Below, piece by piece: positions 1 through 57,767 of a stretch of 64,000 nt of DNA. The notes beneath the pieces were generated by a model. The model was not told the origin of the DNA, ran no database searches, and saw only the letters and a list, made by a program, of their open reading frames with translations. Every line of letters begins with the position of its first letter. Position 1 is the first letter of the stretch. The stretch covers positions 29,617 to 93,616 of the forward strand of contig CAOJRP010000001.1 of assembly GCA_948442015.1 (NCBI GenBank). The letters are read 5' to 3'. The stretch comes from an uncultured Erysipelotrichaceae bacterium (GTDB taxonomy: Bacteria; Bacillota_I; Bacilli_A; RF39; UBA660). A program made the translations under genes and the position numbers.

Positions 1-709
1 TCATGAATTAAATGCTAAAAGTGTTGCTCATCAAATAACCGTAATTAACTCGTTATATGAGTTTTTAATTAAAGATGGTTATATCGATTCTAACCCTTGT
101 GAAAATATTATAACTCCCAAGTTAGATAAACGTTTACCGAAGTTTTTGACAGAAGAAGAGATTGATAAGTTATTAGATGTATCTTTAAATACAGCTTATG
201 ACTATCGAAATAAAGCCATGCTAGAACTTTTATATGCGACAGGTTTAAGAATATCAGAATTATTAAATTTAGAACTTAAAGATATTGATTTAAAGAATGC
301 TTTTTTAAGAGTTATGGGTAAAGGTAAAAAGGAAAGAATTGTTCCAATAGGGGACGTAGCTATCAAATATATGGAGAAATATCTAAAAGATTATAGACCT
401 TCTTTATTAAAAAATAAGAATAGCGACTATGTCTTTATCTCTAATGCAACAACAAAAATGACAAGGCAAGGCTTTTTTAAAATTATTAAAACAGAGTGCC
501 AAAAGAAGAATATTAAAAAAGATATATCACCTCATACTATAAGACACTCATTTGCGACACATTTACTTAATCATGGCGCTGATTTAAGGGTTATTCAAGA
601 TTTATTAGGGCATGAAGATATTTCGACTACGCAAATCTATACTCATGTTGCTAATGAAAAACTAAAAGAAGAATATATGCTTCATCCAAGAAGTGAGATA
701 AAAAAATAG
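1..709 (+). CDS. xerD: Tyrosine site-specific recombinase, XerD/XerC family (5'-partial; the reading frame is open from base 2)
   Basis: The frame from base 2 translates as HELNAKSVAHQITVINSLYEFLIKDGYIDSNPCENI... upstream of the tracked ORF (SAM-like N-terminal domain). The C-terminus has the catalytic region HTIRHSFATHLL...LLGH...TQIYTHV with the RHRH/Y signature. It lies near spoIIM, as ripX does in Bacillus. Confidence 0.7.
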   Translation, partial: HELNAKSVAHQITVINSLYEFLIKDGYIDSNPCENIITPKLDKRLPKFLTEEEIDKLLDVSLNTAYDYRNKAMLELLYATGLRISELLNLELKDIDLKNAFLRVMGKGKKERIVPIGDVAIKYMEKYLKDYRPSLLKNKNSDYVFISNATTKMTRQGFFKIIKTECQKKNIKKDISPHTIRHSFATHLLNHGADLRVIQDLLGHEDISTTQIYTHVANEKLKEEYMLHPRSEIKK

Positions 710-1041
710 GAACTACATTAATCGTAGTCCCTACATTTCTAGCTAATATTACATATCTTTGTTAGCTTTGCTACAGTTGTTAGCTTTACTATTATTAGCT
801 CTTGAACTTCTTGAAGAACGAGAACTTCTAGATTCAGCTCTATTAGCTTTTGATGACTTATTAGTCTTTTGTTCTTTTTTCATAATTTTACCTCCTAATA
901 GTATTATGGATGTCTTATTCTTTTTAATACATTAATCTACTAGGAACAAATTACCAATTTTTGTTAATTACTACCAATTGGTTGTTTCATATTATAGTCT
1001 AATTTTTTTTAATTAAAATATAATTTATTAGGTGATTAATA

Positions 1042-1773
1042 ATGCCCATTTTAATAACTTTTATAGCAGGTTTATCAACTCTTTTAGGCAGTATCTTCAT
1101 TTTTGTAAATATTAAAGAAAAGAATATTAATAAATTTATTACTTTTAGTTTATCGCTATCTTTAATAATTATGATATTAATTAGTATAACAGAATTAATT
1201 CCCAGTGCTGTTATCGATATTTTTCGAAGTTATTCTTTTTTCTTAGCTTTAATTCTTGTTATATTTATTCCAATTATCGGCTACTACATGATTAATTTAA
1301 TAGATAAAATTAGTAAAAATACTAATAACTTATATAAACTTGGGATAATAAATATGATCGTTTTAATACTTCATAACATGCCTGAAGGAATTATTACATT
1401 CTTAAGTAGTAGTCAAGATACTTTTTTAGGAATAAAATTATGTATAGCTATAATGCTTCATAATATTCCTGAAGGAATTGCCATAGCTGTGCCAATATAT
1501 TATGGTACTAAATCAAAATTTAAAGCGATAATGATGACTTTAATATCTGGTTTATCAGAACCTCTAGGAGCAATTTTAACTTACTTTATTTTTAAAGATT
1601 ACATAACTCCTAATACTTTAAGTATCATTCTTTTATTAGTAGGTGCTATAATGATTACTTTATCAATTAATAAATTATTCCCCGAAGCAGAAAAATTAAA
1701 AGAGCCTAAATATATTATGATTGGTATTATTACAGGTTTTATTTTAATAACTTTACTAGAACTTGTCTTTTAA
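1042..1773 (+). CDS. zupT: ZIP-family zinc transporter ZupT
   Basis: Polytopic membrane protein with two HNxPEG motifs (HNMPEGIITF, HNIPEGIAIAV) typical of ZupT/ZIP. Confidence 0.7.
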   Translation: MPILITFIAGLSTLLGSIFIFVNIKEKNINKFITFSLSLSLIIMILISITELIPSAVIDIFRSYSFFLALILVIFIPIIGYYMINLIDKISKNTNNLYKLGIINMIVLILHNMPEGIITFLSSSQDTFLGIKLCIAIMLHNIPEGIAIAVPIYYGTKSKFKAIMMTLISGLSEPLGAILTYFIFKDYITPNTLSIILLLVGAIMITLSINKLFPEAEKLKEPKYIMIGIITGFILITLLELVF

Positions 1774-47203: not shown

Positions 47204-47899
47204 AATACATCACTTTTACTATTATAACAGATTTAAAAAGAAAAAGTAGTTATTTTGTATTTATTGTTAATTTTGATAATGATATCCCATTTTAATATAA
47301 ATTTTGATTTGAATATCTAATTCTATTTTTTTTTATAATAATTACACATATTTGTTAATTGCCAATAGGTAATAATTGATATGCTTACTAGCAAATGGTT
47401 TCATTGTAATCCTTTGCAAGTCATATATCATATTATTAGGATCCTGTTGTCAATTGTAAATTCTTCTTAATGTTTTCAACAATTACTTAGTTATTTCAAA
47501 ACGGAATTTCCATTCGGGGATTTCCTCTTCAAAATTAACCTATTTTGTATTTATGCTACTGTTTCCTTGCTATATTCATCACATTTTTCTACTAACAATT
47601 TAAAATTACAACATCCTTCTAAAAACACTTGAATCAAGTGTTTTATCCATATATTTATCATATAATTTTTTATCACAATCACATAAAGTTTCTTTATTAC
47701 GATTTAACCAAATACATATAGTTATTAATTTCAAACAATACTCCAACAAAAGTTCTTATTCTTTTTTCCATAACATCAACTTTATTTTTGTATTAAATGT
47801 TAAGTAAAATTGTACCAATCTTTATATTTGTTTTTAAAAACAGCATTTAATAAAGTTTTTATACCATCATTCCCATATTGAAGAATATTTATTTATTAT

Positions 47900-48796
47900 C
47901 TATTCTATCTCATAAGCTGTACTTTCACTTTTGCCATCACCATTTTTTAGCTTAATATCTGATTTTAATGTTATTATTGGTCTTAAAGAAGCAAGACCAT
48001 TCATTTCAACTAAAGAACCATCATCATCGAATCTAAGCATTAGATATCCGCATTCTATACATGTGCTTCCTATTTCATTACCAATGCCAGCTATCCAATA
48101 CTGGCCCAAAGGTCCTTCCCGAAGACCTCCCCAGTATCTTAAATTTTTTCCTGATTTTGGATTAGTTAGATAAGTTCCAAAGACTTTATTTATGAGACTA
48201 AGATCCTCCGAAGGAAATTCATATTTTTGGCAATCTTCTTCTTGATAACTTTTACAATGTTCTTCCTGTCCCTGATAACTAATATATCTTGTTTTAAAAA
48301 CATATTTAGAGTTACTATAAGAAGATGCTAAGATTTTCAACGCACCAATATAGTTCGTGTAACCCACAACACCATAAAAATATATACCATCTTCCGAAGA
48401 ATAAACCGATACTGCATCTACCGTTCCATCTTCATTTTTCTTTATTACTCGCCATATATTAAGTTCACTTGGATTTATTGTTTGATCACTAGTATACCCT
48501 GTTAAATCTTTAGATATGGTATAACTTGTACTTGTTGGGGTCATTCTTATGTAATCTCCTAGTTCTACTTTATCTGATAAAGCTACTGGTGCTGTATAAC
48601 AATATTGTCCTTCTGGACATTTCCCTGTTTTATTATATAACTCATCTAGCGAATCTTTGACATTTGTTTTACTAGTCTTATCACTACTATATGTTATATC
48701 CTTACTATTAAATATTGTTGTTGCTCCCACTGTCGTACTTATTCCGATTATTATTCCTATTATTACTCCTATTATTTGCTTTATTCTTTTTTTCAT
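47900..48796 (-). CDS. Putative phase-variable surface protein, paralog A (298 aa)
   Basis: The N-terminal 60 aa are identical or near-identical to paralogs B and C (MKKRIKQIIGVIIGIIIGISTTVGATTIFNSKDITYSSDKT...KTGKCPEGQYC). Conserved C-terminal tail ...LKNGDGKSESTAYEIE. RBS GGAGG. Confidence 0.65.
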   Translation of the reverse strand: MKKRIKQIIGVIIGIIIGISTTVGATTIFNSKDITYSSDKTSKTNVKDSLDELYNKTGKCPEGQYCYTAPVALSDKVELGDYIRMTPTSTSYTISKDLTGYTSDQTINPSELNIWRVIKKNEDGTVDAVSVYSSEDGIYFYGVVGYTNYIGALKILASSYSNSKYVFKTRYISYQGQEEHCKSYQEEDCQKYEFPSEDLSLINKVFGTYLTNPKSGKNLRYWGGLREGPLGQYWIAGIGNEIGSTCIECGYLMLRFDDDGSLVEMNGLASLRPIITLKSDIKLKNGDGKSESTAYEIE

Positions 48797-48832
48797 ATAA
48801 TTCTATCCTCCATTTTTTCTATTGTTGATAAC

Positions 48833-48860
48833 ATTATACCCCCCCCGACCTTTCGGTCAA
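48833..48860 (-). promoter_or_regulatory. Promoter of paralog A with a G8 tract in the -35/-10 spacer
   Basis: Coding strand reads ccccTTGACCgaaaggtcGGGGGGGGTATAATg. Spacer 16 nt. Confidence 0.55.
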
Positions 48861-49109
48861 GGGGTAAGATAGAAAGTTAACGTCAAATGAAAAAAAGAAT
48901 TGGCGAACAATTAAATTCCTGATTATTCACCACTCTCTAAATTACCTTTTATTTAATTCTTTTGACTAAATTCTAAATAGTAAGATATAAAGTACTTGAT
49001 TTTTTTATTTCTAAATATTAATAAATATTTCTTTTTATCATTGCAATAATATGTTCTTAAAATTAGTCAAATCATAAAATTTTCACATATTGTAATGAAG
49101 AATAAACTT

Positions 49110-49328
49110 TTACTTTAAAGTTTCTAAAACATTATTAATTAAATCAATATTGTCAATAGCATCGCTTATCTTATCAGTTGCCCTTAAACGATACTTTTCT
49201 TTAACAAAATTAGTAAAAGATTTCAAATCATTATCCCTATTTATTTGTTTAATAAAGAAACTATTTTCTTTCAAATAATTATAGTAGTTTTTTTTACTTT
49301 TTAAATACAATAACAATTCTCTATTCAT
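49110..49328 (-). CDS. Hypothetical small protein
   Basis: 72-aa ORF. Confidence 0.35.
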   Translation of the reverse strand: MNRELLLYLKSKKNYYNYLKENSFFIKQINRDNDLKSFTNFVKEKYRLRATDKISDAIDNIDLINNVLETLK

Positions 49329-49330
49329 AA

Positions 49331-49669
49331 TTAATCCTTAAAAAAGTTCGTAATCGGTCTTGGTACTTTTGGAGTAGCAGCAGTAATATTTGTTGGTTCT
49401 TTTTTCGTTAATTCACTTATTACATCAATAGCTTTTTGGGCATTATCAATATGTCCTTTTAAAGCATCAACATCAATGCTTTTCAAATTTTCCATAATAC
49501 TAAGTTCTTTTTTATTTTTTTCCGGATATTTTTTCCAAACTTCATCATCTTCCCCATATATATCATACATTTCATAAAGTTGCTGCCACGTAGTCTCACC
49601 ACTATTAACATAATCAACTAAATTTCTATGATTTTTAGCAAACTCTTTAAATTCATCTTTTTTACTCAT
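49331..49669 (-). CDS. Hypothetical protein
   Basis: 112-aa ORF downstream of parC. Confidence 0.4.
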   Translation of the reverse strand: MSKKDEFKEFAKNHRNLVDYVNSGETTWQQLYEMYDIYGEDDEVWKKYPEKNKKELSIMENLKSIDVDALKGHIDNAQKAIDVISELTKKEPTNITAATPKVPRPITNFFKD

Positions 49670-49715
49670 AAAAAATCACCTATTATACTTTATGTTAAAT
49701 AGGTGTTTTTTAATA

Positions 49716-52256
49716 TTATAATTTAAAATCATCAATAAAGTCATCGATAGTCATTTCTTTAGGGTCTTCCTGTTTTTCATCCTGTTTTACTACTTTTTCT
49801 TCTTTTTTATTTAAATAACTTACTAAATCGACTTTCACAAAAGAGCCATCAATATCATATTTGGAAATAGAAGAACCATTACTTTGTAAATCCATTATTG
49901 GAAGTTCACTATTCTTTTCTTCTCTTATTTCACTATCAGCCTTGATACAAATTAATGATTTACCATTAGTAACATAAGCACTTAAGACATTATAATCATT
50001 AGTCTTAACTTTCTTCATAATTCTAGAACCTTTTTTTGCTCTTGAAGTTATTTCTAAGTCACTTATTTTAACTCTTTTAGCAGTTCTCAAATTTGTAAAA
50101 ATATTTAAATACTCATCCATTTCATCAATTACAACTCCACTAATTACTTCATCATCTTTTAAGTTAATTGCTTTAACTCCACTTGCTTTTATACCAACTA
50201 AAGGTATTTCACTACTATTAAATCTTAAGAAATAACCTGTCTTAGAAATACAAATAACTTCTTTTTTCTCAAGTGATACTGATACTACTTCATCATTTTC
50301 TTTTAGTTTAAAAGCAGTCATCGGCTTAGTATAACGACTTACTTCAAAGTCTTTTAACACACTTCTCTTAGCTAAACCATTCTTCGTAAATAAAACTACA
50401 TTATCTTCTTTATTTTTATAAACAATTGAAGCAATAATTTTTTCCTCAGGAGATATCCCTATAACGTTATTAATGTGTTTTCCAAGTTCTTTCCATTTAG
50501 CTTCAGGTATGGCATGAACTGGTACAAATAAGTATCGACCTAAATTTGTAAATAATAAAATTGTATCTAGGGTACTTAGTTCATATAAACCAATTAGATA
50601 ATCTCCTGGTTTTATAGTAGTTTCTTCTTCTTTTGATGCTTGATATGATTTTGAGCTAACTCTTTTAACATATCCTTCATTAGTTACTACGACAACAACA
50701 TTTTCACGTGGTATCATTGCTTCAGCATCAATCTTAATTTCTGTTATTTCTTCTTTAATCACTGACCTTCTTGGGTTACCATACTCTTTCTTAATTTTCT
50801 TTAGTTCATCTTTAAATACTTTAATTAAGACTGTTTCATCATTTAGAATACTTTCTAAGAAAGCGATAATCTTTTGTAAATCTTTCAATCTATTTTCTAA
50901 CTCGATAACATCAAAATTAGTTAAACGATAAAGTTGTAAATTAACAATAGCTTCCGCTTGTTCTTCCGTAAACTTAAATTCTTTAACCAAATTAACTTTA
51001 GCATCAGCTTTATTTTTACTTGCTCTAATTACTCTAATAACATCATCTAAAATAGATAAAGCTTTTACTAGTCCTTCTGTGATATGAAACTCTTTATTAG
51101 CTGTATCTAAATCAAACTTGGTTTTTCTTGTAATTACTTCTTTTTGATGAGCAATATAAGCATCTAACATTGGTAGAACACCAAGAAGTTTTGGCCTTCT
51201 ATTTACAATAGCTACCATATTAAAGTTATAAGAGATTTGCATATCCGTATTTTTAAGTAAATAATTTAAAATTAAATCAGCATTAGCCCCACTTTTTAAA
51301 TCAATAACAATCCTTAAACCATCAGCACCCGTTTCGTTTCTTGTCTCCGCTATACCATCAATCTTTTTATCAATCCTAATATCTTCGATTTTCTTGACTA
51401 TTTGAGAGATTGTCACTTCATAGGGAATTTCTGTGATGACTATTGATTGCTTTCCTTTATTTTTAACTATCTCATATTTAGAAACAATATTTATTTTACC
51501 TTTACCAGTCTCATAAGCTTGTTTAATTCCTGCTATTCCTTCAACAGTACCACCAGTTGGAAAATCAGGTCCTTTTAATATTTCCATAATGGTATCTAAT
51601 TTACAATTTGGACTATCAAGTCTTTTGATTGTTGCATCTATTACTTCTTCTAAATTGTGAGGTGGAATATTAGTAGCATAACCAGCACTAATTCCAGTAG
51701 TACCATTAACTAGTAAGTTAGGATATTTCGAAGGAAGTACTGTTGGTTCTAGCCTCGAATCATCAAATGTTGGTGCCATTTCAACAGCATTTTTTTCAAT
51801 ATCTTTTAAAAGTTCATTACTAATTTTCGAAAGTTTTGCTTCGGTATAACGATAAGCAGCAGCACAGTCCCCATCAATAGAACCATTATTACCTTGAATA
51901 ACAATATATGGCTCTCTTTGTTTCCAATTCTGACTCATACGAACCATCGCATCATAAACCGAAGTATCGCCATGAGGATGATATTTACCAATAACTTCTC
52001 CAACTGTTTGAGCAGATTTTACCGTCTTCTTTTCAAAAGTATTCTTATTTTTATACATTGCATATAAAATTCTTCTTTGAACTGGTTTTAAACCATCTCT
52101 TACATCAGGAATTGCTCGATCTTGAATAATATATTTAGAATATTTACCAAACCGATCTCCCATGATCTCTTCAAGACTATATTCTTGTATTCTTTTTATT
52201 ACATCTTCCATAGTGTTCACCATAAAAAGTATAACATAAAAAAAAGATGGAAACAA
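49716..52256 (-). CDS. parC: DNA topoisomerase IV subunit A (type IIA topoisomerase A subunit; no GyrA-box seen)
   Basis: PDVRDGLKPVQRRILYAMY plus the active-site Tyr region. No QRRGGKG GyrA-box is visible in the C-terminal domain. It lies downstream of a GyrB/ParE-type gene and is not in a dnaA-gyrB-gyrA context. Confidence 0.65.
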   Translation of the reverse strand: MFPSFFYVILFMVNTMEDVIKRIQEYSLEEIMGDRFGKYSKYIIQDRAIPDVRDGLKPVQRRILYAMYKNKNTFEKKTVKSAQTVGEVIGKYHPHGDTSVYDAMVRMSQNWKQREPYIVIQGNNGSIDGDCAAAYRYTEAKLSKISNELLKDIEKNAVEMAPTFDDSRLEPTVLPSKYPNLLVNGTTGISAGYATNIPPHNLEEVIDATIKRLDSPNCKLDTIMEILKGPDFPTGGTVEGIAGIKQAYETGKGKINIVSKYEIVKNKGKQSIVITEIPYEVTISQIVKKIEDIRIDKKIDGIAETRNETGADGLRIVIDLKSGANADLILNYLLKNTDMQISYNFNMVAIVNRRPKLLGVLPMLDAYIAHQKEVITRKTKFDLDTANKEFHITEGLVKALSILDDVIRVIRASKNKADAKVNLVKEFKFTEEQAEAIVNLQLYRLTNFDVIELENRLKDLQKIIAFLESILNDETVLIKVFKDELKKIKKEYGNPRRSVIKEEITEIKIDAEAMIPRENVVVVVTNEGYVKRVSSKSYQASKEEETTIKPGDYLIGLYELSTLDTILLFTNLGRYLFVPVHAIPEAKWKELGKHINNVIGISPEEKIIASIVYKNKEDNVVLFTKNGLAKRSVLKDFEVSRYTKPMTAFKLKENDEVVSVSLEKKEVICISKTGYFLRFNSSEIPLVGIKASGVKAINLKDDEVISGVVIDEMDEYLNIFTNLRTAKRVKISDLEITSRAKKGSRIMKKVKTNDYNVLSAYVTNGKSLICIKADSEIREEKNSELPIMDLQSNGSSISKYDIDGSFVKVDLVSYLNKKEEKVVKQDEKQEDPKEMTIDDFIDDFKL

Positions 52257-52286
52257 ATTTAGTTGACACCCTTTTAGTAAAATTTT

Positions 52287-53264
52287 TTACTTTTCAATTA
52301 CATACTTCCATATATTATTATGATAATCCATTATAAAAGTAAAGACATTATCTTTTGATACTAAAGTAATTGAAAGTTCGTATTTATCACGAAGAGTAAT
52401 AAAATCATCAACAGCATTAACTTCAATAATTTTTTTATTTTTAAAACTTGGAAACTCATAAACGACTTCAATTAATTCATCATAATCACGAAGTAATTTT
52501 ATAACTTTCTTATATTCTCGACGATAATTATTCTTAGTATTAGGATTTAAAAGAAAAACGATAAAAGCACAAATTAAAATGAAACCAGACAATGAAGTCA
52601 TGATGATTGCTAAAGCAAAAAGCTTTTTATTTTTAATTAAGTCTTCTTTTATTCCTATTAAAAAGTTTTTTTCTTTCAATTCACTTTTTGTAATAACAAT
52701 ATTATCAGCTAAAAGAGGTATTTTTACTTTAGAAGTACTATTAATCTTAAGTTTTTCGTTAAAATCATAAGATATAGTATTCGTATTTAAAGATATTTCT
52801 AAATAAGCATCTATTTTACTTAAATCTTGTTTATTTAGCTTTTCTTTAACTATTTTATTAAATTCTTCATAATTAACGTTTAAGGCTTCGTTTATTTCAT
52901 AAGTTGCTGTATCTACTTCCCCTATTTTCTTTGATGGCGTTAAAACAATTTGATTATAATACATATTTTTATCAGTCTCTTTATTTCTAGCTACTACTGC
53001 TGCTGTAATGTCATAATCATAGTCAAAAGAAATCTTTTTGGAACTAAGAAAATTATAATTAAAGTTAATATTAATATTGCTATCTTCCTTTATTTCATAA
53101 TTTATATAACTATTTTCTCGATATTCTAACAATTTTTCTTTTTTAGCAGTTACTTTTGAAGTACTAATTATAGCCATTATAATGGCAAATAAAAACAGTA
53201 TTATTGAAAAAGTAATCAGTATATCTCTTTTATTAGATTTTTGCTTTTTACTCATTTTAGCCAA
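52287..53264 (-). CDS. Membrane protein of unknown function, inserted between parE and parC
   Basis: N-terminal TM (ILITFSIILFLFAIIMAIIS) and a second TM near residue 220. Confidence 0.45.
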   Translation of the reverse strand: MAKMSKKQKSNKRDILITFSIILFLFAIIMAIISTSKVTAKKEKLLEYRENSYINYEIKEDSNININFNYNFLSSKKISFDYDYDITAAVVARNKETDKNMYYNQIVLTPSKKIGEVDTATYEINEALNVNYEEFNKIVKEKLNKQDLSKIDAYLEISLNTNTISYDFNEKLKINSTSKVKIPLLADNIVITKSELKEKNFLIGIKEDLIKNKKLFALAIIMTSLSGFILICAFIVFLLNPNTKNNYRREYKKVIKLLRDYDELIEVVYEFPSFKNKKIIEVNAVDDFITLRDKYELSITLVSKDNVFTFIMDYHNNIWKYVIEK

Positions 53265-53314
53265 CTCCTATAGTATAAATTATAGCATAGACATTTAAAA
53301 AGAAAAACTACGAA

Positions 53315-55249
53315 TTATATTTCGTAATCATCCTCTAAAGAAAACTCAACATTTTCATTAATCCATTCTTTTCTTGGTTCGACTTGTTCACCCATTAAAA
53401 TTTGAACTCTTTTTTCAGCTAAGGCCGCATCAGTAATATTTACTTTAATTAAAGTTCTATGTTCTGGGTCCATAGTAGTAATTTTTAGCTCTTCTGGATC
53501 CATTTCACCTAATCCTTTAAAACGTTTAATTTCATAACCACTTTTACCATTAGTAAACTCTTGCACTTCGGAAGTATCCCAAAAATAAGTTCTTTTTTTA
53601 TCTTTTTCTTCAACTAAAAATAATGGTGGCTGAGCAACAAAGAGTTTTCCAGCCTCAATCAAGCCTTTCATATAACGATAGAAAAAAGTTATAAGTAAAC
53701 ACTGAATATGAGCTCCATCTTGGTCAGCATCAGTAAGAATAATAACTTTATCAAAATTGGAGTCATTTGCATCAAAATCAGCACCATATCCGGCTCCAAC
53801 AATATGAATAATTGTATTTATTTCTTCGTTTTTTAAAACTTCACTAATATTTGTCTTTTCAGCATTTAATACTTTTCCTCTTAGTGGAAGTAAGGCTTGA
53901 AAGCGATAATCTCTTGCTTGTTTGGCACTTCCTAGTGCTGAATCCCCTTCAACTAAAAATAGTTCGTTAGTTTTCGGATTTTTATAACCTGCGGGGACAA
54001 ATTTACCAGACATATTCTTTTCTAAAGCTTTCTTTGATTTACCATTACGTGCTTCTTCTCGCGCTTTCCTTGCCGCTTCTCTAGCTACTTTACTTTTAGT
54101 GGCTTTATCAATAATATTTAAAGCAATCTCTTTATTTTCTTCTAAAAAGAATTGTAAGTTTTCATAAACAACTTGTTCTGTTACTGGTCTTGCTTCTGGG
54201 GTACCTAATTTTCCCTTCGTTTGTCCTTCAAATTGTAACAAAGCTTCTGGCACTTTCAAGTTGATAACTGCTGTTAAGCCTTCTCTTACATCACTTCCGT
54301 CAAAACCTTCTTTTCCTTTAATTAAGCCATTTGTTTTAGCATAATCATTGAAAGCTTTTGTCAATCCCGTTTTAAAACCAACTTCATGAGTACCACCATC
54401 ACTTGTTTTAACATTATTAACAAAAGATAAGATATTTTCACTATATCCTTCTTGATATTGGAGAGCTACAGAAACTTCTATTCCTTGTTTACCACCATTA
54501 AAATTAATTACTTTATGAAGCGGATTTTTACCTTCATTAATAAATTCAACAAAGCTCGTTAAGCCATTTTCATAATGAAATTTAGCACTTTTTCCATCTT
54601 CTTCATCAATTACTTCGATAGTTAAACCACTAAGTAAAAAGGCACTCTCTTGCATTCTTTCACAGATTGTTGTATAGGAAAAATGACATCCTTTAAAAAT
54701 ATCAAAGTTCGGCATAAAAGTAACAATCGTTCCAGTTTTAGTTGATTTACCAATCGTTTTTAAAGGGGATTCAACAACTCCACCATCTTTAAAGCGAATA
54801 TTACTAATTAATCCATCTCGATAGATAATAACATCCATACTTGTACTTAAGGCATTAACAACCGAACCACCAACACCATGAAGTCCTCCTGATACTTTAT
54901 AGTTACCTTCTTCAAATTTACCACCAGCATGGAGTACTGTATAAATTACTTCGGGAGCACTCTTACCACTTTTATGCATACCAATAGGTACACCACGACC
55001 ATTATCAGCAATTGTAATACTACCATTTTTATTTAATACAATTTTAATGTAATCTCCATAACCATTTATTACTTCATCAATTGAATTATCAACTATTTCC
55101 CAAACCAAATGATGGAGACCTCTTTTATCAGTTGAACCAATATACATACCTGGTCTTTTTCTTACTGCTTCTAAGCCTTCTAATATTGTTATTGCATCAG
55201 CATCATATTTTTTTGTTGCCATACTATTCACCTTATAAAAGTATATCAT
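53315..55249 (-). CDS. parE: DNA topoisomerase IV subunit B (GHKL ATPase plus TOPRIM)
   Basis: ILEGLEAVRKRPGMYIGSTD...LHHLVWEIVDNSIDE...EGDSA. About 640 aa. The true start is probably MATKKYD at 55222. Confidence 0.65.
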   Translation of the reverse strand: MIYFYKVNSMATKKYDADAITILEGLEAVRKRPGMYIGSTDKRGLHHLVWEIVDNSIDEVINGYGDYIKIVLNKNGSITIADNGRGVPIGMHKSGKSAPEVIYTVLHAGGKFEEGNYKVSGGLHGVGGSVVNALSTSMDVIIYRDGLISNIRFKDGGVVESPLKTIGKSTKTGTIVTFMPNFDIFKGCHFSYTTICERMQESAFLLSGLTIEVIDEEDGKSAKFHYENGLTSFVEFINEGKNPLHKVINFNGGKQGIEVSVALQYQEGYSENILSFVNNVKTSDGGTHEVGFKTGLTKAFNDYAKTNGLIKGKEGFDGSDVREGLTAVINLKVPEALLQFEGQTKGKLGTPEARPVTEQVVYENLQFFLEENKEIALNIIDKATKSKVAREAARKAREEARNGKSKKALEKNMSGKFVPAGYKNPKTNELFLVEGDSALGSAKQARDYRFQALLPLRGKVLNAEKTNISEVLKNEEINTIIHIVGAGYGADFDANDSNFDKVIILTDADQDGAHIQCLLITFFYRYMKGLIEAGKLFVAQPPLFLVEEKDKKRTYFWDTSEVQEFTNGKSGYEIKRFKGLGEMDPEELKITTMDPEHRTLIKVNITDAALAEKRVQILMGEQVEPRKEWINENVEFSLEDDYEI

Positions 55250-55284
55250 ATAAATTAAAAAGCAAGCAAGTCTTTACATTTGCT

Positions 55285-56181
55285 TTACTCTAAAGTGTAC
55301 GCAGTTTCCGCACTTTTTCCATCGCCACTTGCTATTTTTACACTTGATTTGATAGTTAGTATTGGACGATAAACCATATCGAGAAGACTTTCTGTACCAT
55401 TATATTGATTTTGTAAACTGTGAGTAACAGTGTATCTACCGCTAATATCAACAAATCTTACATCATACCCTGTCCATGGATCATCAGTTCTATATCCTCT
55501 AGAAGATATCATATAGTAATTGTTAGAGTTATTACCCCCACTAACCCTTTCAGCTTTTAGCGTTCCTAGAGCATTTTCTACTAAACTAACATCAGTTTCA
55601 GCTCCTGTGTCTACTGGACAAGCTGTATCAGAAAATTCGCTACAATACTCTATTTGATTACTATAACCAATATGTCTTGTACTTTGGATATATTTATCAT
55701 TTGTATGGGCTGCTGCTACTTTATTTAAAATTCCTATATAATTCATATAGCCAATTTTTCCATATATTTGAATTCCAACTCTTGATGTATAATGCGATAT
55801 CATTTCTACTGTTCCATTTTCATTCTTCTTTATTACTCGCCACAAATTTAGTTCACTTGGATTTATTGTTTGATCACTAGTATATCCCGTTAAACTCTTT
55901 GAAACTGTATAAATTGTACTTGTTGGGGTCATACTGATATAATCTCCTATTTCTACAATTGATAACGGCATACTTTTTCCGAAACAATATTGTCCTTCTG
56001 GACATTTCCCTGTTTTATTATATAACTCATCTAATGAATCTTTGACATTTGTTTTTGTTGTTTTATCACTACTATATGTTATATCCTTACTATTAAATAT
56101 TGTTGTTGCTCCCACTGTTGTACTTATTCCAATTATTATTCCTATTATTACTCCTATTATTTGCTTTATTCTTTTTTTCAT
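55285..56181 (-). CDS. Putative phase-variable surface protein, paralog B (298 aa)
   Basis: Same N-terminus and C-terminal tail (...IASGDGKSAETAYTLE) as A and C, with a divergent middle. Confidence 0.65.
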   Translation of the reverse strand: MKKRIKQIIGVIIGIIIGISTTVGATTIFNSKDITYSSDKTTKTNVKDSLDELYNKTGKCPEGQYCFGKSMPLSIVEIGDYISMTPTSTIYTVSKSLTGYTSDQTINPSELNLWRVIKKNENGTVEMISHYTSRVGIQIYGKIGYMNYIGILNKVAAAHTNDKYIQSTRHIGYSNQIEYCSEFSDTACPVDTGAETDVSLVENALGTLKAERVSGGNNSNNYYMISSRGYRTDDPWTGYDVRFVDISGRYTVTHSLQNQYNGTESLLDMVYRPILTIKSSVKIASGDGKSAETAYTLE

Positions 56182-56218
56182 ATAATTCTATCCTCCATTT
56201 TTTCTTATTGTTGATAAA

Positions 56219-56246
56219 ATTATACCCCCCCCAACCTTTCGGTCAA
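56219..56246 (-). promoter_or_regulatory. Promoter of paralog B with a G8 tract in the -35/-10 spacer
   Basis: Coding strand reads ccccTTGACCgaaaggttGGGGGGGGTATAATt. Spacer 16 nt. Confidence 0.55.
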
Positions 56247-56303
56247 GGGGTAAGATAGAAAATTAACGTCAAATGAAAAAAGCTCATATTTTTCTACCGA
56301 GCT

Positions 56304-57239
56304 CTAATCTAATATATAGGCTGTACTTTCACTTTTTCCATCACCATTCTTTAATTTTACGCTAGATTCCAATGTCAAAACGGGTCTTATACCACCTTCC
56401 ATCCTTCTGTCAACTAACTCACCATCTACCAACTTCATAGCCATATACCCACAATGAGTGCACGAAGAACCCCCATCGCCACCAAGAGTTTCGAGAGTGT
56501 AGGCGAATTGACCTGGTCCCCAATCATTTTCCCCAAGATAACCACGACGTATAGAGTGCCAATATCGTTGCATCGTTCCTGACATAGTCGTAGCAATTAC
56601 CGAACCAAATATTTTATTAACAAGTTTAAAGTCTTCTCCTTCTAGAGAGTCCTTTGGACATGAACTCTCTTCATAACTTGTACAATATTCCATTTGATTT
56701 TTATATCCTATATTTCTTGTTCTTGCTACATATTTTTCGTTTGTGTATTGTGCAGCTATTATATTTAATACTCCAATAGCATTTAAATATCCTACTTTTC
56801 CTCTTAAATATATCCTATTACTAGATGCATAAACTGATATTACATCTACTGTTCCATCTTCATTCTTTCTTATTACTCGCCATAAGTTTAGTTCACTTGG
56901 ATTGAGTGTATTTTGAGTACAATTGGCATCATTCATACACCCTGTTAATTCTCCTGGTGGTGTATAGCTTGTACTTGTTGGGGTCATTCTTATGTAATCT
57001 CCTAGTTCTACTTTATCTGATAAAGCTACTGGTGCTGTATAACAATATTGGCCTTTTGGACATTTCCCTGTTTTATTATATAACTCATCTAATGAATCTT
57101 TGACATTTGTTTTTGTTGTTTTATCACTACTATATGTTATATCCTTACTATTAAATATTGTTGTTGCTCCCACTGTTGTACTTATTCCAATTATTATTCC
57201 TATTATTACTCCTATTATTTGCTTTATTCTTTTTTTCAT
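56304..57239 (-). CDS. Putative phase-variable surface protein, paralog C (311 aa)
   Basis: Same N-terminus. The middle block is identical to A (YTAPVALSDKVELGDYIRMTPTSTSYT). The 3' end of the reading frame (5' region of the gene) is identical to B at DNA level. C-terminal tail ...LKNGDGKSESTAYILD. Confidence 0.65.
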   Translation of the reverse strand: MKKRIKQIIGVIIGIIIGISTTVGATTIFNSKDITYSSDKTTKTNVKDSLDELYNKTGKCPKGQYCYTAPVALSDKVELGDYIRMTPTSTSYTPPGELTGCMNDANCTQNTLNPSELNLWRVIRKNEDGTVDVISVYASSNRIYLRGKVGYLNAIGVLNIIAAQYTNEKYVARTRNIGYKNQMEYCTSYEESSCPKDSLEGEDFKLVNKIFGSVIATTMSGTMQRYWHSIRRGYLGENDWGPGQFAYTLETLGGDGGSSCTHCGYMAMKLVDGELVDRRMEGGIRPVLTLESSVKLKNGDGKSESTAYILD

Positions 57240-57276
57240 ATAATTCTATCCTCCATTTTTTCTTATTGTTGATAAA

Positions 57277-57303
57277 ATTATACCCCCCCGACCTTTCGGT
57301 CAA
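57277..57303 (-). promoter_or_regulatory. Promoter of paralog C with a G7 tract in the -35/-10 spacer
   Basis: Coding strand reads ccccTTGACCgaaaggtcGGGGGGGTATAATt. Spacer 15 nt. Confidence 0.55.
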
Positions 57304-57767
57304 GGGGTAAAAAAAGAATAGTGATGCTTGTCAAGATATAATTACAAAAAAGTATAAAGCAAAAAAGATTTTAAAGATAATCAAAAATTTAAAAAAATAA
57401 TAGCAAATAAAGTTTACCTTTATTTGTAGGAATATTATTATTTATAATAACATCTCTATGATTCGAAGTAATTTGAGGGTTTTCTTTTCATAAACACATT
57501 TCCTTTAAATCCCCCTGAAGTTAAGTTTTTTCCAAAACCCTTGAGTAATCAAAGGCAAAACTGATACACTGCTTGTGTCTTAGACCGTACTATAACACAT
57601 GAAAAATAGCTTGTAAAATCACTATTTTTAGATTATTGAGACAAAAAAAGACAATAATCTTATTATTGCTTAGCAAAAATACAATTATTGTTTTAATATT
57701 TTGAGAATAATCCGAAAATTGGCAAATTCACTAAATTTTTAATTTAATGTCAAAATGTGTAAATAAA

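Follow-up and report, generated by a model that had tools for sequence, protein, structure and literature searches.

The window, a 64,000-nucleotide (nt) stretch of contig CAOJRP010000001.1 from an uncultured Erysipelotrichaceae bacterium, contains three paralogous minus-strand genes (A, B, and C) that are probably promoter-spacer homopolymer contingency loci, i.e., genes whose expression would vary in phase through a poly-G tract. On the coding strand, each gene is preceded by the module ccccTTGACCgaaaggt(c/t)-Gn-TATAAT, followed by GGAGG and ATG. An earlier note, made from the sequence alone, had described runs of G8, G8, and G7 at an identical promoter position, giving spacers of 16, 16, and 15 nt, and the window sequence bears this out. 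The G-run was also thought to be the sole length difference between the promoters. The runs differ as described, but the 5' untranslated region (5'UTR) of gene A is also 1 nt shorter (AATAG instead of AATAAG). Similarly, the ATG lies at 36-37 nt past the -10 box, close to the 36 nt proposed for both GGAGG and ATG, but GGAGG starts at 21-22 nt.

The putative promoters A and B are the two best sigma-70-type matches in the 10.5 kb between positions 47500 and 58000, with 11 of 12 positions each. Promoter C is missing from the list because the scan took spacers of 16-18 nt, and promoter C has 15. Their reading as -35 and -10 boxes is consistent with the match of the hexamers to consensus (11/12), with the fixed position relative to the Shine-Dalgarno sequence (SD) and the ATG, and with the design being kept in diverged lineages; the start site is a prediction. 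Runs of G7 or longer are rare, as the earlier note had claimed for such a low-GC genome. The window has about 25-30% GC and contains six overlapping matches at four loci, whereas 0.39 are expected from shuffles and none of 100 shuffles reaches six. Three of the four loci sit at the exact same promoter position. The fourth is a coding G7 outside the module, in a gene for a 481-amino-acid polysaccharide flippase-like protein (PF01943 match in an orthologue), where gain or loss of one G would shift the reading frame.

Orthologous promoters were collected through exact-protein look-ups in independent metagenome assemblies, and the tracts compared are assembly consensus sequences from different samples. 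The heterogeneity in tract length that had been predicted is found between these assemblies. The tract of gene B is G8 in the window, ERZ14864791, ERZ14865205, and ERZ14864790, and G7 in ERZ14865628 and ERZ14864800, with identical flanks and protein. When the five locus-spanning assemblies are aligned, the tract indel is the sole variable column between columns 488 and 3510 (~3,000 nt). Two further promoters lie next to each other near dnaB/dnaI. The promoter of P0021, a 285-amino-acid gene, has G7 in ERZ14864788, ERZ14864797, and ERZ14864786, and G8 in ERZ14889340, ERZ14865628, and ERZ14889263. The promoter of P0002, the 308-amino-acid gene beside it, has G7 in ERZ14865628 and ERZ14889263, and G8 in ERZ14864788, ERZ14889340, ERZ14864797, and ERZ14864786. 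The states of the pair in the six samples are (7,8), (8,8), (8,7), (7,8), (8,7), and (7,8). As they combine differently per sample, the two tracts vary independently. The alignment of this pair (1,130 nt, six assemblies) has five variable columns, comprising the two tracts and three positions in the 5'UTR just past the second promoter.

The promoter of a 332-amino-acid gene has G7 in two assemblies and G8 in one. The roughly 40 tract observations in the comparison consist exclusively of G7 and G8, and the two lengths differ at four of six orthologous promoters in the window's lineage, plus one promoter in a second lineage. As controls, A/T runs of 6-7 nt in the same alignments vary in 1 of 16 cases, while the G tracts vary in 3 of 3, and the coding G7 of the flippase gene keeps its length in each of the three other assemblies read. 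The stability of the control homopolymers makes sequencing error unlikely and marks the G tracts as local mutation hot spots.

The module had been expected to recur in related genomes, and it does so in a second lineage with the same architecture and the same G7/G8 polymorphism. In BATT21 scaffolds, which come from a different cohort, the relative P0026 has the promoter TTGACA-aaaaaatc-G7-TATGAT-tttatcaacaatag. The gene after it has TTGACG-aaaaaatc-Gn-TAATAT, where Gn is G8, G7, G7, G8, and G8 in five assemblies. The flanks and the non-G half of the spacer differ from the window, whereas the geometry of 8 nt plus G7/8, the hexamers, and AACAATA after the -10 box are kept. A separate observation concerns the gene behind a second-lineage G7/8 promoter (L169 ~2500-2560, also L170-L173), in which the post-SD ATG meets a stop after nine codons. 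All five assemblies have A9 in this stretch. A run of A8 would give MNKETKKICKNIKVVLGIIIMIFILII.., which is plausible as a signal or anchor sequence, and the run may be a second, translational poly-A switch.

A metagenome scan with the 17-mer CCCCTTGACCGAAAGGT returned 67 stretches, of which only the Joint Genome Institute (JGI) metagenome contigs L127 and L128 are relevant. The other 65 are unrelated chance matches with a GC of at least 0.37, a few of them being ordinary terminators with a perfect palindrome. In L127 and L128, the module is exactly that of the window, the -10 box being TAAAAT, and lies upstream of other anchored proteins. The G7 module in L128 (400-1295, WFLX011301824) is syntenic with the gene A slot, after the same 72-amino-acid gene, and the product, a family member of greater length, carries an additional N-terminal domain before the conserved VELGDYISMTPTSTSY domain. 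In L127, which has many ambiguous bases, an insertion-sequence-type transposase-like open reading frame (ORF) at 324-1397 (minus) lies directly upstream of the poly-G module driving a different anchored protein.

In more distant metagenome-assembled genomes (MAGs), the region upstream of family genes has G9-G11 abutting TATAAT or TATGAT on the 5' side (L015, L018, L021, L026 twice, and L181/L182); L018 has G10, whereas the related L181 and L182 have G9. Among 78 distant loci (~430 kb), a run of G7 or longer occurs within 150 nt upstream of 5 of 93 family ORFs versus 2 of 365 other ORFs. L023, L036, L042, and L057 have a G tract 5' of a -10-like box with no recognisable -35 box, and an assembly gap (a run of N) abuts the G11 tract of L057. 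The recurrent tract length of 10 in distant relatives may come partly from read-trimming or assembly limits.

Phase variation is supported by G7/G8 differences that are confined to the tracts, by the stable controls, and by the conserved design in the second lineage. The proposed mechanism is as follows. Each gene would have its own sigma-A-type promoter, with poly-G as the 3' half of the -35/-10 spacer. During replication, slipped-strand mispairing would add or remove one G, so that the spacer toggles between 15 nt (G7) and 16 nt (G8) and the promoter between poor and functional strength. As each paralog would switch separately, a population would show differing combinations of exported or membrane-anchored proteins. 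These would display a constant N-terminal stalk and the variable C-terminal half of an enlarged C-type-lectin-like domain, presumably exposed at the surface and presumably binding a ligand. Inter-copy recombination between the 92-100% identical 5' cassettes would allow loss, gain, or exchange of genes. The selective agent may be host antibody, phage, or niche adhesion. A wider proposition, held at about even confidence, is that poly-G spacer switching is the ancestral control of a very large lectin-like surface family across several genera of uncultured spore-forming low-GC gut Bacilli, with at least seven independently switching paralogs per genome plus cassette recombination.

Several observations weigh against phase variation at these promoters. 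The upstream context of gene C has G7 in 5 of 5 assemblies and G8 in none, and the exact-protein look-up of gene A found no identical protein in any other assembly, which leaves tract A with no comparison. The tract differences are seen between populations, as assembly consensus of different samples, and do not represent switching within a clone. Both spacers are below the 17-nt optimum and G9 is never seen in the comparison; the assignment of G8 to the ON or higher state and of G7 to the OFF or lower state is thus a guess. The distant G-tract promoters of L015, L018, L026, and L181 have a TTGAC-like hexamer 19-20 nt from the -10 box, which misfits one shared optimum. The family genes P0025 and L011 have ordinary upstream regions with no G tract. 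Finally, the same sequence forms a terminator-like hairpin, which follows the terminator rule at genes B and C, while the tail at gene A fails it.

This hairpin, CCCCTTGACC-GAAA-GGTCGGGGGG, has a stem of 10 pairs (counting G-T/G-U), a GNRA-type loop, and a U-rich tail; gene B reads GGTT instead of GGTC. A short palindrome abutting the G-run had been noted before. It is present, but it is longer than was noted, and its absence from the second lineage argues that it is not the core of the device. RNA folds of the hairpin regions have energies of -26 to -29 kcal/mol (z ~ -4). The upstream TTTCTATCTT (48866-48875, minus) is complementary to GGAGGATAGAA in the SD region (48801-48811), and the two are paired in the minimum-energy fold, likewise for gene B. 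In read-through transcripts, this predicted pairing could mask the ribosome-binding site. A transcript starting past TATAAT would exclude the hairpin. Read-through from upstream could be stopped or silenced by it. The BATT21 module keeps the G-tract promoter with no C-run and hence no hairpin, which suggests that the hairpin is an accessory feature. Rfam has no family match anywhere in the window. Inverted repeats of at least 30 nt are absent between 44000 and 60000, which speaks against an invertible promoter (inverton).

The tracts could be mutational hot spots with no regulatory role, their length drifting between strains and expression being independent of it. This is unlikely. It agrees with the differences being seen only between samples, and with the suboptimal spacers in the window's lineage and those of 19-20 nt in distant relatives. 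However, G runs are strongly disfavoured in a genome of roughly 27% GC, yet they are kept at the same promoter position despite diverged flanks, and neutral drift would spread the lengths or erode the tract instead of leaving only two adjacent lengths in some 40 observations. Homopolymer errors of sequencing or assembly are an extremely improbable source of the G7/G8 differences. Even though homopolymers are prone to error and coverage is low (4-15x) in some of the contigs, the coding G7 of the same genome is constant, as are 15 of the 16 A/T runs of 6-7 nt. Both G7 and G8 recur in contigs of 12-47x coverage, and neighbouring tracts on one contig are found in different states.

It is improbable that the element is mainly an RNA or DNA hairpin (CCCCUUGACC-GAAA-GGUCGGGGGG with its U-rich tail) serving as a terminator or insulator, or as a 5' leader with the anti-SD-like TTTCTATCTT, with the G tract as the 3' arm. 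The terminator-like matches at genes B and C and the stable folds, in which TTTCTATCTT is paired, are in line with such a role. Against it, the BATT21 module and the distant G-tract promoters lack the hairpin while keeping the -35 box, G tract, and -10 box, the tail at gene A departs from the terminator rule, and no Rfam family covers the element. Moreover, just six of the seven or eight G's pair, so that one G more or less barely alters the stem. The hairpin may nonetheless be present alongside the switch and insulate against read-through. It is very improbable that the G tract is a protein-binding element or one of DNA structure (for instance, a regulator site or an unusual helix by the -10 box) whose length tunes regulation otherwise than by spacing. 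The G run invariably abuts the -10 box, whereas TTGAC lies at a distance that depends on the lineage (15-16 versus 19-20 nt), and the AACAATA motif past the -10 box is conserved, both of which would suit it. No regulator is known or encoded beside genes A, B, and C, however, and the spacing model fits the data with no extra component.

The coordinates of the three genes and their upstream elements are given in Table 1. The DNA of the genes has 92-100% pairwise identity from about -100 to +175 (~275 nt), is mosaic from +175 to +275, and has 16-50% identity in the 3' half. The constant 5' cassettes correspond to the repeat families D1, D4, and D6 in the repeat analysis. An upstream module of about 100 bp, as described in the earlier note for all three genes, holds for genes A and B (to about -105), but in gene C it reaches only to about -65. 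The paralog alignment confirms the shared N-terminus, conserved cysteines, conserved C-terminal tail, and divergent middle that had been described. Residues 1-61 are identical except for single substitutions, and Cys60, Cys66, Cys181, Cys189, and the GDGKS..TAY tail are common to the three proteins, with divergent sequence in between.

Table 1. Positions of the three paralogous genes, their putative promoters, and associated elements in the window.
Feature	Positions	Strand	Remarks
Promoter A	48833..48860	minus	-35 TTGACC (48860-48855), spacer gaaaggtc + G8 = 16 nt, -10 TATAAT (48838-48833)
G8 tract, promoter A	48839..48846	minus	From homopolymer scan
Promoter B	56219..56246	minus	TTGACC, gaaaggtt + G8 = 16 nt, TATAAT
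G8 tract, promoter B	56225..56232	minus	Polymorphic across assemblies
Promoter C	57277..57303	minus	TTGACC (57303-57298), gaaaggtc + G7 = 15 nt, TATAAT (57282-57277)
G7 tract, promoter C	57283..57289	minus	G7 in all 5 assemblies with gene C upstream context
Gene A	47900..48796	minus	ORF, 298 amino acids; predicted N-terminal signal or membrane-anchor helix, then enlarged C-type-lectin-like domain
Gene B (P0019)	55285..56181	minus	ORF, 298-amino-acid paralog
Gene C (P0001)	56304..57239	minus	ORF, 311-amino-acid paralog; AlphaFold2-modelled member
Constant 5' cassette, gene A	48622..48896	minus	About -100 to +175 relative to ATG; promoter, 5'UTR, SD GGAGG (48811-48807), and about the first 58 codons
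Constant 5' cassette, gene B	~56007-56281	minus	Equivalent block
Constant 5' cassette, gene C	~57065-57303	minus	Equivalent block
Hairpin, gene A	48841..48864	minus	CCCCTTGACC-GAAA-GGTCGGGGGG; overlaps -35 box and G tract
Hairpin, gene B	56227-56250	minus	Equivalent; terminator-like match in scan
Hairpin, gene C	57284-57307	minus	Equivalent; terminator-like match in scan
Fourth G7	32112-32118	minus	Coding (..RIGGEK..) in ORF 30877-32322, 481-amino-acid polysaccharide flippase-like protein; outside module

Two assemblies (L155 1937-2897 and L160 35-995) lack gene C; in them, the upstream region of gene C, with G7, is followed immediately by gene B. This arrangement suggests copy-number variation through deletion or recombination between identical 5' cassettes. 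In another array, the first gene is replaced. Both changes are as expected from recombination between identical cassettes. Due to these repeats, assemblies of such genomes break at the cassettes. Family genes occupy housekeeping sites, namely between mutS and parC, between parE and a DUF421 gene, and beside dnaB/dnaI, and at least seven G-tract promoters are seen in the window's lineage. A conserved 82-amino-acid ORF with no Pfam hit (L148 1642-1890, minus; also L150, L152-L154, L161, and L162) sits on the opposite strand between genes 2 and 3 of the four-gene family array near dnaB/dnaI. Among labelled genomes, the nearest are gut MAGs under the name 'uncultured Tenericutes/Bacilli bacterium', each with many paralogs. 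SpoIVA and YunB are present on contigs of the window's lineage, which indicates that the organism is a spore-former and not a mollicute.

Pfam, NCBIfam, and PHROGs contain no family for proteins A, B, and C, with only a sub-threshold DUF2613 match on the transmembrane helix, and profile and single-sequence searches of the PDB gave nothing meaningful. The proteins were said to have no characterised homolog, which stands at the sequence level in these four databases, but the fold is assignable as C-type-lectin-like. The AlphaFold2 model of gene C (predicted local distance difference test score of 82) has a helix at residues 6-21; a floppy linker that includes a short helix follows, and from about residue 70 the chain forms a globular domain, modelled confidently. 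The globular domain shows structural similarity to a C-type-lectin-like domain of the IgAse N-terminal-domain type, even though a Foldseek search of this model against the PDB gave nothing below E 0.7. [quoted passage not shown]

The N-terminus, MKKRIKQIIGVIIGIIIGISTTVGATT, may either be cleaved as a signal peptide (VGA|T) or act as an anchor. It has no lipobox, and the first cysteine is residue 60. The absence of cysteine before this residue speaks against a Mycoplasma-type variable lipoprotein. The PF07963 N_methyl (prepilin) motif of type IV pilin-like proteins has no Pfam match in proteins A, B, and C; it is carried by the distant relatives P0088 and P0118. An initial search yielded 136 relatives, every one of them from a metagenome or MAG; some have fibronectin-type-III or prepilin-type N-termini, and one distant relative has a weak tail-fibre match (E 0.008). 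A profile search of 1.84 billion cluster representatives yielded 3,542 proteins at E ≤0.001, including 432 at E ≤1e-30, in which the family domain is mostly C-terminal in proteins of 300-2,000 amino acids. A scan of viral contigs found no family relatives, and thus the family is not phage-borne in that collection. Searches of the literature turned up no description of the family or of poly-G promoter switches in such bacteria. Elsewhere in the window, a 676-amino-acid protein (28785-30815, minus) is encoded beside a polysaccharide gene cluster. An anchor lies at its N-terminus, and it also has acidic stretches of low complexity and Cys/His-rich modules that recur, KQLHP..GEW.DNGD..C..C and PDDDYIDESLTEYVPHDLPDTPEDVLGDEGLF.C.TCGM.

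Most of the phase variation known in gut commensals involves invertible promoters (DNA inversions), and homopolymer switches are documented mostly in Gram-negative pathogens and mycoplasmas. If the proposed switch is real, a Mycoplasma- or Neisseria-style 'phasome' would exist in commensal Firmicutes and would be readable directly from existing metagenomes. The same switch logic would act in an uncultured gut lineage on a large family that has no Pfam model and whose fold points to ligand binding. The state of the switch would be a single-base length, scorable in any metagenome. Tract states could be compared with host, immunoglobulin A (IgA) coating, phage load, and time series without culturing.

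Most similar in overall logic is the vlp system in Mycoplasma hyorhinis, a multigene family of surface lipoproteins with conserved 5' regions and a poly-A tract in each -35/-10 spacer, where independent switching gives combinatorial expression. The window shares the conserved 5' regions and a homopolymer in each gene's own spacer. In contrast, its tracts are poly-G, its proteins lack a lipobox and have a globular lectin-like domain instead of the vlp tandem repeats, and its lineage has sporulation genes (SpoIVA and YunB) and is not a mollicute. Promoter tracts are also found in porA (poly-G) and opc (poly-C) of Neisseria meningitidis, and in hifA/B of Haemophilus influenzae ((TA)n). With a spacer repeat in the promoter, porA and opc are closest in tract chemistry. 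Together with hif, they differ in being single loci of Gram-negative pathogens with longer tracts (9-14) and graded expression, whereas in the window the tracts belong to a paralogous family of an uncultured gut bacterium, low-GC and of Gram-positive type, and take just two states (G7 and G8). A simple repeat between or beside core promoter elements alters their spacing and thereby transcription (PMC5084427, where the opc and hif papers are cited). Combinatorial lipoprotein phase variation in mycoplasmas is also listed in a review, but the shuffling is attributed there to site-specific recombination.

With respect to fold, the N-terminal domain of the Thomasclavelia ramosa IgA peptidase (PDB 9qa6), which is C-type-lectin-like, is among the closest known systems. 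The variable proteins of diversity-generating retroelements (Mtd, TvpA, and TaqVP) also have a C-type-lectin fold. The window genes have no extra direct or template repeat nearby, which rules against a mechanism of this kind. Unlike in the retroelement systems, diversity in the window would come from paralogs and recombination, and expression from a simple-repeat switch. The mechanism itself is already known; novelty lies in the lineage, in the protein family, and in how broadly the pattern occurs.

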